IMG/VR virus record: IMGVR_UViG_2684622619_000018
From: a virus
Lineage: Duplodnaviria > Heunggongvirae > Uroviricota > Caudoviricetes
Strand: one strand, 5' to 3'
DNA length: 5,317 nucleotides
Part shown: in pieces, positions 1,314-1,915 of the stretch
Layout of the letters: each line of letters opens with the position of its first letter
Position numbering within the stretch: the first letter of the stretch is position 1
The notes under the pieces: model-generated
Seen by the model: the letters and a program-made list of their open reading frames with translations, nothing else
Told to the model about the DNA's origin: nothing
The model's database searches: none
Made by a program: the position numbers and the translations under genes

Positions 1314-1343
1314 CAGAAAAAACAAAACCCGCCGAAGCGGGTT
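1314..1343 (-). terminator. Rho-independent terminator ending the hok transcript
   Basis: On the minus strand: AACCCGC-TTCG-GCGGGTT (7-bp stem, 4-nt loop) followed directly by TTGTTTTTTCTGG. It lies about 70 nt after the hok stop codon. Confidence 0.7.
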
Positions 1344-1411
1344 AAGTGCGGGTGCGTTGAGGATGCCTGACACATCAGCGGTGGCGAGGGATTTCTCCCC
1401 CGCCTGGTCTC

Positions 1412-1567
1412 TTACTCCTCAGGTTCGTAAGCTGTGAAGACAGCGACCTCCGTCTGGCCGGTTCGGANTCGTACCTCGCAGAGGTCTTTCCTCGTTACCA
1501 GTGCCGTCACTATGACGGTTAAACAGATGACGATCAGGGCGATTAACATCGCCTTTTGCTGCTTCAT
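1412..1567 (-). CDS. hokD: Hok/Gef family type I membrane toxin (HokD/RelF-type), 51 aa
   Basis: Minus-strand translation from ATG 1567: MKQQKAMLIALIVICLTVIVTALVTRKDLCEVRxRTGQTEVAVFTAYEPEE (x is the N at 1468). It has a single transmembrane helix and the conserved C-terminal Cys, and matches E. coli HokD as I recall it. AAGGAG Shine-Dalgarno lies 9 nt upstream. The in-frame ATG at 1624 (70-aa ORF in the track) is probably not the start. Confidence 0.85.
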   Translation of the reverse strand: MKQQKAMLIALIVICLTVIVTALVTRKDLCEVRXRTGQTEVAVFTAYEPEE

Positions 1568-1784
1568 AACCTGCTTCTCCTTGCCTTTCGGCGCGTAAGA
1601 GGCTAACCTACGTTTGTGAAGCATAGATTGGGCCTCAGATTAATGTTAAGCGTCTTGCAGGACGCGTAATGTTAACTGGGGCTTTTCTCTGTCTGCCTTA
1701 CGGTGGCATGCCCGAGGCAGACAGCCTCAAGCACCCGCAGCAATTCTACTTAACTCTCGCTTTACAGCAAACCGTTTTGCCCGA

Positions 1785-1800
1785 TATGGGAATTCCCATA
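1785..1800. repeat. Perfect 16-bp palindrome TATGGGAATTCCCATA (contains GAATTC), with a second GAATTC-centred imperfect dyad at 1802-1818
   Basis: Read directly: 1785-1800 equals its own reverse complement. 1802-1818 is GGAA-TGAATTCA-G-TTCC. Both lie just downstream of the smORF stop, in the hok leader. Confidence 0.9.
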
Positions 1801-1810
1801 CGGAATGAAT

Positions 1811-1915
1811 TCAGTTCCCCAGGCGCTCCATCAAAAACACAACCAGGCAGTAAACACCCACAACAGCAATAACAGCCAGAGCGCCTTCCATTACCAGTGA
1901 AATATCATCCGACAT
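1811..1915 (-). CDS. Unannotated small ORF: 34-aa single-pass membrane peptide (MSDDISLVMEGALAVIAVVGVYCLVVFLMERLGN)
   Basis: Not in the ORF track (below its length cut-off). ATG at 1915 is preceded by AAGGGAGGGAAT, a strong Shine-Dalgarno at correct spacing. Codon use is E. coli-like (CTG, GGC, GCT). Residues 10-28 form one hydrophobic helix. TGA stop at 1811-1813. Confidence 0.4.
   Translation of the reverse strand: MSDDISLVMEGALAVIAVVGVYCLVVFLMERLGN

Follow-up and report, generated by a model that had tools for sequence, protein, structure and literature searches.

Dyad symmetries beside a prophage hok gene: hok/sok folding elements and, probably unrelated to them, the remnant of a neighbouring KilA-N/BstA-family gene

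Introduction

Inverted repeats crowd the region upstream of a prophage hok gene, which raises the question of whether they all belong to the hok/sok locus or whether some of them come from something else. The DNA concerned is a stretch of 5,317 nucleotides (nt) from a tailed phage (Caudoviricetes; IMG/VR record IMGVR_UViG_2684622619_000018), referred to here as the window and numbered from its first letter; it shares 99.9% identity with a lambdoid prophage of E. coli O157:H7. An initial annotation, made from the letters alone, had placed dense dyad symmetry at 1650-1818 in the hok leader and had proposed that it acts either as RNA, in the fold-back structures that keep the toxin silent, or as DNA, in operator sites. 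The repeats it listed are present:

1785-1800: perfect 16-bp palindrome, TATGGGAATTCCCATA
1802-1818: imperfect dyad, GGAATGAATTCAGTTCC, with an 8-bp core (TGAATTCA) and bulged flanks
1689-1697 and 1716-1724: 9-bp inverted repeat, the two copies (CTGTCTGCC and GGCAGACAG) fully complementary
1650-1665: hairpin with a 5-bp stem, GCGTC-TTGCAG-GACGC
1641-1649 and 1667-1675: direct repeat, TAATGTTAA

Our analysis indicates that these dyads are, in all probability, two unrelated objects: folding elements of hok/sok, and the remnant of a neighbouring gene whose copy in the window would have no role for hok.

Origin of the dyads upstream of the hok promoter

With the 5' end of the hok mRNA inferred at 1736, the placing of the dyads in the hok leader holds for 1641-1735 and fails for 1785-1818, which lies at about -49 to -82 relative to that start, beyond the -35 element of the promoter:

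1743-1770, minus strand: hok promoter, read off the sequence, with -35 TTGCTG at 1770-1765 and -10 TAGAAT at 1748-1743

Being upstream of the promoter, and therefore outside the transcript, the 1785-1818 dyads have no part in fold-back of the hok mRNA. That reading stands for 1641-1735, in the form of a stem-loop, the Sok/Sok-target hairpin and the pairing of 5' and 3' ends.

Taken by itself, the 16-bp palindrome is only marginally unusual: perfect palindromes of at least 16 bp occurred in 9.4% of 1000 windows simulated under a Markov-1 model, in agreement with the 0.08 that had been estimated from the letters. It is non-random only once comparative data are added. Scanning viral contigs with ATATGGGAATNCCCATAT gave matches in at least 120 contigs, and in about 45 of those listed the motif lies within an open reading frame (ORF) of 240-270 amino acids (aa), where it encodes D-M-G-I-P-I-S in the context ...FFDELSRDMGIPISELIQSFKGG..QGTWVHP.... 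In sister loci the palindrome is longer and perfect over 22-24 bp, (C)CGATATGGGAATTCCCATATCG(G), and the window copy differs from it by the loss of one T. The region upstream of the promoter can accordingly be described as follows:

1781-1817, plus strand (sense): KilA-N/BstA-family gene remnant of about 37 nt, assigned by blastn to intact genes (33-34 nt, 94% identity), colinearity and synteny
1785-1800, no strand: perfect 16-bp palindrome, by comparison with sister loci a shortened copy of the 22-24-bp form
1802-1818, no strand: imperfect dyad, by comparison with intact alleles derived from the codons S-E-L-I-Q-S (TCGGAATTAATTCAATCA in those alleles)

When the lost T is restored, the remnant reads CCC GAT ATG GGA ATT CCC ATA (T)CG GAA TGA ATT CAG TTC, that is P-D-M-G-I-P-I-S-E-*-I-Q-F. 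It represents codons D-M-G-I-P-I-S-E-L-I-Q of a gene with a KilA-N domain and a BstA C-domain that has been lost from the window prophage, and the second dyad is what these S-E-L-I-Q-S codons have decayed to. As an intact ORF the remnant fails, with about 37 nt left, a frameshift and an in-frame TGA. As to the overlap noticed earlier between the second dyad and the end of a 34-aa ORF, the stop codon of that ORF (1813-1811) falls inside the remnant and is contributed by it.

Similarity of the non-coding copies to the gene outruns the palindrome, covering 33-54 nt at 81-97% identity overall and reaching 54 nt at 81-83% in L033, L084 and L103. In six loci (L081, L085, L088, L097, L104 and L114) an intact gene stands between DUF551-like genes and hok, antisense to its neighbours. 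The window is colinear with L114 in the same orientation, window segments 2662-2571, 1813-1782 and 1748-1314 corresponding to L114 1839-1930, 3105-3137 and 3653-4085. Judged by similarity, colinearity, orientation and synteny together, 1781-1818 is a remnant of a KilA-N/BstA-family gene with one nucleotide deleted.

In order to sample hok loci without bias with respect to the palindrome, we gathered them by an anchor in the -10/tac region. The -10 region and the transcription start are kept at every hok locus, while upstream of about -45 the loci fall into many unrelated classes. Comparison of 82 distinct 300-nt flanks upstream of hok showed 53 without similarity to the gene, 24 in which just the palindrome region is kept, four that extend as far as the start of an intact copy and one with a spurious 14-nt match; all 24 hok-upstream gene fragments thus retain just the palindrome part. 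The dyads are wholly missing from the 53 flanks, which include that of hokW in phage 933W, where the promoter core is identical, and 933W-type loci bear no trace of the KilA-N/BstA gene. The dyads are therefore not a hok operator, as had been suggested. We found no evidence that the palindrome regulates hok, and no link between the 1785-1818 dyads and the DUF1627 'winged-helix' protein of the window that had been put forward as a possible binder.

Conversely, the dyads occur without hok in L009 (after an ORF6N gene) and in the class C loci beside ninB, L010 and L094 among them. The second dyad has been deleted from L203, and L009 has other sequence in its place. Viral contigs in which the palindrome precedes an intrinsic terminator, with DUF551-like genes on one side and ninB or other genes of the nin region on the other, number about 22. 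We counted the remnant in 741 E. coli genomes, the median copy number being three.

Some arrangements deserve separate mention. In class C (L010 2163-2180, L094 about 6074, L035, L061, L089 and about 17 other viral loci) the palindrome is flanked only by AGCG and CGAC and lies 6-10 nt before the intrinsic terminator (GGGCCTCTTCGGAGGCCTTTTT), between DUF551-like and nin-region genes and without hok; the flank on its right is similar to a DMGIPIST-type allele, which points to an independent origin. In L008 (17-1386), IS150 stands in place of most of the hok module, leaving the hok 5' leader and the palindromes, and in L006 the hok-plus-relic module is plasmid-borne, with IS1 and IS5 on its flanks.

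The palindrome in intact KilA-N/BstA-family genes

The protein encoded by the parent gene matches Pfam KilA-N with 94.5 bits, and its C-domain matches the PADLOC BstA profile with 73.8 bits (profile positions 148-272). BLASTP aligns it with BstA of phage BTP1 at 32% identity (E = 3e-16). These matches make its C-terminal half a homologue of BstA, which prophages encode for abortive infection, and a BstA_C-like domain was found in 83 of 84 sampled genes. Intact copies occur in 137 of 5426 complete E. coli genomes, where they are annotated merely as 'KilA-N domain-containing protein'.

Nearly all hits of a first viral scan were close relatives, in all of which the palindrome was kept, and that scan was uninformative. 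Distant homologues proved more telling. Three of them, at 54-59% identity, have perfect palindromes at the same codons with different arms, namely CCGATGCGGGAATTCCCGCATCGG (DAGIPAS), GAGGTCTATGGGAATTCCCATAGACCTC (SMGIPID) and TCGAAACGGGAATTCCCGTTTCGA (ETGIPVS). We then assembled 80 loci from species-representative genomes (78 distinct sequences) using protein patterns outside the motif (GTWVHP.. and AQWLSP.FAV). They come from Entero-, Alpha- and Betaproteobacteria, Verrucomicrobiota, Myxococcota, Dehalococcoidia, Bacillota, Spirochaetia and others, with a gene GC content of 31-65%. These 80 loci are the ones closest in protein sequence to a query alignment that was partly ascertained via the palindrome; the DNA-level codon and pairing tests are independent of this.

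Across many phyla the palindrome in intact genes is perfect and 16-28 bp long. Counting Watson-Crick pairs around the axis in the 78 sequences, 34 have 12 of 12 and 21 have 11 of 12, whereas the longest palindromes elsewhere in the same genes have half-arms of 3-7. Within a 10-bp helix 93.1% of cells are paired, and double changes are seen at all ten pairs. Cells with a double change number 97, against 20.8 +/- 3.7 after shuffling, a value reached in none of 500 shuffles, and sliding the partner by 1-3 columns lowers pairing to 28-48%. The coupled changes are often non-synonymous, as in (M,I), (T,V), (A,A), (V,T) and (I,I), and also (D,S), (E,S), (S,D) and (V,T).

Codon choice at the motif, compared with the rest of the same genes, is similarly skewed:

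Ile ATA: 50/50 at the motif, 21% elsewhere (p = 3e-34)
Ser TCG: 46/51 at the motif, 18% elsewhere
Gly GGA: 64/78 at the motif, 23% elsewhere
Ile ATT: 70/78 at the motif, 36% elsewhere
Pro CCC or CCG: 78/78 at the motif, 54% elsewhere

Whether proline is written CCC or CCG is set by the base to be paired, and alleles that lack G-I-P (L331, L338 and L352) still keep the stem. In the intact gene the piece constitutes an independent nucleic-acid element, with arms that covary between phyla even where this costs amino-acid changes.

As to the level at which it is read, G.U cells are scarce (7 of 780, against 54 other mismatches), which leans towards DNA-level pairing or symmetry over an RNA helix, an argument weakened by coding constraints. 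An asymmetry of G.U cells that might point to one RNA strand gave no strand signal, the cells being few and balanced (GT 3 against AC 4 at one pair). An internal translation start at the ATG of the palindrome was rejected, as the ATG is missing in many alleles. So was an operator array: extra copies of the core GGAATTCC near the 84 genes numbered five, with 4.3 expected, leaving one copy per locus. Rfam at E <= 1 found nothing over 1781-1818 of the window, nor over the palindrome in seven intact-gene loci. The literature that we searched on KilA-N with palindromes, inverted repeats or hairpins, and on GGGAATTCCC in phage, including the BstA paper, does not describe the element, which is apparently undescribed.

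Several variants were met along the way. The KilA-N gene of Klebsiella phage 2 LV-2017 (L428) has a different 25-bp palindrome, TAAAGGTGGGATTTTCCCACCTTTA (FKGGIFPPL), at the homologous position, ORF nt 186-210. In Planktothrix phage PaV-LD the arms CGATATCG...CGATATCG are kept and the centre is changed. KilA-N genes on two giant-virus contigs from metagenome-assembled genomes (L021 and L073) carry a 22-bp palindrome, CAATATGGGAATTCCCATATTG (N-M-G-I-P-I-L), without a detectable BstA C-domain. Together with L039, L071 and L123 these make five palindrome-bearing KilA-N genes that lack a BstA_C match, and the notion that the element is confined to genes with BstA_C is not fully tenable.

Copies also stand alone. 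Two other alleles recur as exact 22-mers outside KilA-N ORFs, in 5 of 10 viral contigs for one and 15 of 50 for the other, some of these copies lying within large unrelated ORFs. The 22-mer CGATATCGGAATTCCGATATCG, for instance, lies at L378 7067, L388 2712 and L401 8965, where it is read through as ..P-D-I-G-I-P-I-S.. in non-KilA-N ORFs of 790-930 aa.

The hok/sok locus

The remaining dyads belong to 1616-1736, which is a canonical hok/sok locus of the hokW/hokD type with RNA helices that are already known. Its features are:

1412-1567, minus strand: hok (hokD/hokW-type) toxin coding sequence, 51 aa; Pfam HOK_GEF (PF01848) 81.6 bits against a cut-off of 22; named hokD in the annotation of the identical O157:H7 record
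1412-1624, minus strand: mok frame, 70 aa, an in-frame N-terminal extension of hok, from the ORF list; mokW is at the homologous place in 933W
1318-1736, minus strand: inferred full-length hok mRNA, 5' end by homology (RF01794 model start at 1736), 3' end by the intrinsic terminator at 1343-1326
1725-1736, minus strand: tac element, GGGUGCUUGAGG, at the hok mRNA 5' end, with predicted pairing to 1350-1362 in the full-length minimum free energy (MFE) fold
1350-1362, minus strand: fold-back inhibition (fbi) element, partner of tac in the full-length MFE fold, the concept being taken from PMC9841398
1689-1724, minus strand: hok mRNA 5' stem-loop, the 9-bp inverted repeat around GGCATGCC, from the consensus fold and within the Rfam match
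1616-1686 (approximately), plus strand: Sok antisense RNA, by coordinate transfer from the annotated sokW of 933W (AF125520)
1581-1609, plus strand: putative Sok promoter, TTGCCT, 17-nt spacer, TAACCT, read off the sequence and from its position relative to the sokW start
1639-1676, no strand: Sok terminal hairpin, and Sok-target hairpin on the opposite strand, made of the 5-bp hairpin at 1650-1665 and the two TAATGTTAA copies

Rfam RF01794 (sok) matches 1562-1736 on the minus strand with 114.9 bits, against a gathering threshold of 59, over the full model (1-157) and starting at GGGUGCUUGAGG. The putative Sok promoter was not among the predictions of a promoter scan.

Folding the minus-strand leader with a view to covariation, as the initial annotation had advised, recovered the helices it had claimed. 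The consensus of 60 distinct homologous leaders contains the stem 1716-1724/1689-1697, enclosed by 1736-1729 paired with 1678-1684, and the hairpin 1661-1676/1639-1654. The pair 1722/1691 covaries, being G-C in 16 and A-U in 40 of the 60. In this leader-only fold tac pairs with 1678-1684, instead of its distal partner. In the MFE prediction for the whole inferred transcript (1736 to 1318, with a single N set to A), tac pairs with 1350-1362 and the 5' and 3' ends are closed upon each other.

The direct repeat finds its explanation in Sok. Its two copies, offset by one base, pair via G.U wobbles on the Sok strand only, and the hairpin is therefore far stronger on that strand (plus; -29.2 kcal/mol, z = -5.2) than on the hok strand (minus; -17.8 kcal/mol). 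A transposition footprint was considered as an origin of the repeat and rejected in view of this pairing.

The working of the locus would then be as follows. A hok mRNA starting at about 1736 on the minus strand would be held closed at full length by pairing of the 5' tac with the 3' fbi, the classic silencing of full-length hok mRNA (PMC9841398), and its leader helices would be the 1689-1724 stem-loop and the 1639-1676 hairpin. The plus strand would yield Sok (about 1616-1686), with a long terminal hairpin built from the TAATGTTAA repeat through G.U pairs. This mechanism is carried over by analogy from work on hok/sok of plasmid R1, our own contribution being the structures and the homology. 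As a standard locus with RNA structures known since the 1990s, the hok part is of little import.

The tip of the Sok hairpin varies among loci. Relative to the Rfam sok consensus, the window and 933W share a 16-nt insertion, which gives an extra 5-bp hairpin at the tip of the Sok/Sok-target stem. Two versions of the tip exist, one the reverse complement of the other: GCGTC-CTGCAA-GACGC and GCGTC-TTGCAG-GACGC on the hok strand (window versus L032, L046, L084 and L142). Between the 5-bp arms, the 6-nt loop of one is inverted relative to the other, in hok loci that are otherwise near-identical. PPompW-type hok loci have a different, shorter sequence at this position. Weak, sub-threshold Rfam matches to isrK (27.2 bits against 50) and rsmX over the hok 3' untranslated region and terminator (1322-1408, minus strand) probably reflect the hairpin-plus-terminator make-up of that region.

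Gene content of the window

All genes of the window are on the minus strand. In the direction of transcription they are replication protein P, a DUF1627 protein, several small ORFs, a 187-aa ORF, a 34-aa hydrophobic ORF, hokD, a 92-aa ORF and a DUF968 protein. The 34-aa ORF is the one that ends in the remnant:

1811-1915, minus strand: small hydrophobic ORF, 34 aa (MSDDISLVMEGALAVIAVVGVYCLVVFLMERLGN), annotated as hypothetical (WP_001278460.1), no Pfam match

In 933W-type loci another small hydrophobic ORF (MTWPEAF...VYSICRWG) adjoins the hok promoter in its place. The window contains a run of 50 N at 361-410, within the DUF968-family ORF, which is masked or unknown sequence, and a single N at 1468, within hok, which is A judging from homologues.

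Discussion

A perfect palindrome just beyond a -35 element invites other explanations than the one favoured here, and these differ in what they make of the comparative data. Chance, which the simulated windows alone would have allowed, is refuted by the recurrence of a longer perfect form in viral contigs and E. coli genomes, with homology extending beyond the palindrome, and can be dismissed. An operator or activator site for the hok promoter, possibly bound by a prophage protein, would suit dyads at -49 to -82, where either class I activation or repression from an upstream site is conceivable, and a perfect palindrome of 22-24 bp, which is typical of dimer binding sites. We nevertheless regard it as very improbable, since most distinct hok flanks do without the dyads, the dyads occur without hok, no second copy lies near the genes, and their origin from coding sequence has been demonstrated. 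Improbable, too, is that the dyads form a 3' hairpin in RNA by which the transcript from the upstream small ORF and early operon is stabilised or terminated and hok insulated from read-through. The hairpin does stand just past the stop codon of the small ORF, it folds at about -12.8 kcal/mol, and in class C the palindrome is directly ahead of an intrinsic terminator in the direction of early transcription. However, no U-tract follows the palindrome on either strand, a terminator scan finds only the hok terminator at 1343-1326, the z-score of the palindrome fold is just -1.2 on the minus strand, and small ORF and dyads are not always linked, PPompW loci having the dyads without the ORF.

Explanations that start from the parent gene fare better. 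The palindrome might have survived as a hotspot of recombination or deletion, a cruciform or hairpin focusing breakpoints so that mosaic junctions come to lie at its edges; on the hok side the junctions are indeed 0-4 nt from the palindrome in all relic classes, with flanks unrelated between classes, and palindromes can keep their symmetry through intrastrand templated repair. A palindrome of 22 bp is short for SbcCD-type instability, however, and a hotspot leaves the deep conservation, covariation and codon bias in intact genes unexplained; we consider it unlikely. A functional account begins from the finding that BstA is silenced by aba ('anti-BstA'), a short cognate DNA element that overlaps its own gene and neutralises the system from within its own locus (PMC8585504). 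By analogy, the palindrome in intact genes may be the cognate DNA ligand of the protein, an aba-like self-immunity site held in a permissive loop where the arms dictate the amino acids, with solitary copies (the one upstream of hok, those beside ninB and those within other phage ORFs) kept or captured by phages as decoys that would disarm the BstA-like defences of resident prophages; we put this forward tentatively and consider it rather doubtful. That the remnant in the window is a retained, functional, solitary copy of such a site, a decoy protecting the prophage during replication in cells that express a protein of this family, is likewise possible and on balance doubtful. What speaks for a site of this kind is the BstA C-domain of the parent gene and of nearly all sampled genes, the nucleotide-level selection on the palindrome with its allele-specific arms, and the scarcity of G.U cells, which fits symmetry at the DNA level. 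Upstream of hok, moreover, only the palindrome part of the gene survives, relics derive from two or three alleles (those of the window and of L131, the latter being DAGIPAS, and perhaps a DMGIPIST-type allele behind class C), two further alleles have solitary copies in viral contigs, and relics are found in more E. coli genomes than the intact gene (741 against 137). On the other side, the link between palindrome and BstA immunity is drawn by analogy rather than experiment, the palindrome also occurs in KilA-N genes with no detectable BstA C-domain, the window copy is damaged by its 1-nt deletion, and some solitary copies are flanked by gene debris and may be plain relics. Only one aba has been mapped, that of BTP1, and it is another sequence at the 5' end of its gene, with direct and not inverted repeats, in a bstA that lacks the palindrome. 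Identity with the published aba was accordingly rejected.

The interpretation that we prefer, two unrelated objects of which the upstream one is a gene remnant, has points to be held against it. The window matches the gene over a short stretch of 33-37 nt, two-thirds of which are palindromic, for which reason the orientation rests on about 13 asymmetric bases and on synteny. The ends of the hok and Sok transcripts are placed by homology. Retention of the palindrome only, and solitary copies of other alleles, fit selection or a recombination hotspot better than neutral decay and leave room for a residual function. The deletion in the window, the truncation in L203 and the mismatches in L131, on the other hand, look like decay and speak against retained function. 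We infer that the window copy has no role in hok control and is either a decaying relic or a solitary DNA site for a BstA-like protein.

A striking, 'operator-like' dyad beside a promoter may thus be the fossil of a neighbouring gene, a caution for the annotation of regulatory sites in mosaic prophages. The palindrome itself is a selected single element of KilA-N/BstA-family genes in many bacterial phyla and some giant-virus contigs. If it is aba-like, it would be a concrete and cheaply testable candidate for the aba elements of BstA homologues other than that of BTP1, and its solitary copies would point to a possible anti-defence decoy strategy.

Comparison with known systems

For the hok/sok part the reference is plasmid R1, where tac/fbi end pairing, ucb/dcb, a metastable 5' hairpin and Sok-triggered decay by RNase III have been described (PMC9841398). 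The tac-fbi pairing is reproduced computationally in the full-length fold of the window transcript, and the likeness extends to the pairing of tac with a downstream box in the leader-only fold and to the complementarity of Sok to the mok leader. In the window, mok is in frame with hok. The closest relatives are hokW/mokW/sokW of 933W and chromosomal hokD (RF01794; PF01848), with a module about 92% identical in DNA from the -35 region to the terminator. The frames of mok and hok, tac, the position of Sok and the Sok hairpin, including its 16-nt tip insertion, are common to both; 933W differs in having no palindromes and a different small ORF adjoining the hok promoter. From the Rfam consensus the window departs by the extra hairpin at the tip.

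The palindrome has precedents of a general kind in the lambda ori within gene O and the P22 pac within gene 3, cis-acting sites that lie in the gene of the protein using them. Like these, it is a DNA element under its own selection inside a coding sequence. They are kept by sequence, in contrast to the palindrome, which is kept by covariation of its arms. At the protein level, the KilA-N domain profile matches the APSES DNA-binding domain of Mbp1 (PDB 1BM8; E = 2e-4). The seven residues that the palindrome encodes (s-D-M-G-I-P-I) fall into a gap of the Mbp1 alignment and are missing from the short KilA-N proteins of D3, HK544 and Mcat, and the palindrome therefore lies in a variable insert of the protein.

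The nearest functional parallel is the BstA-aba system (Owen et al. 2021, PMC8585504). The parent protein departs from BTP1 BstA in its N-domain, which is a canonical KilA-N domain and not of the BTP1 type, and its gene adjoins hok in a nin-like region instead of lying downstream of cI. The aba of BTP1 is a 63-bp segment at the 5' end that spans the start codon and has terminal CCCGCC direct repeats, in contrast to a covarying palindrome at codons ~58-66. The C-domain of the parent protein is nonetheless homologous to BstA by its profile match, and both kinds of element overlap the coding sequence of their own gene.

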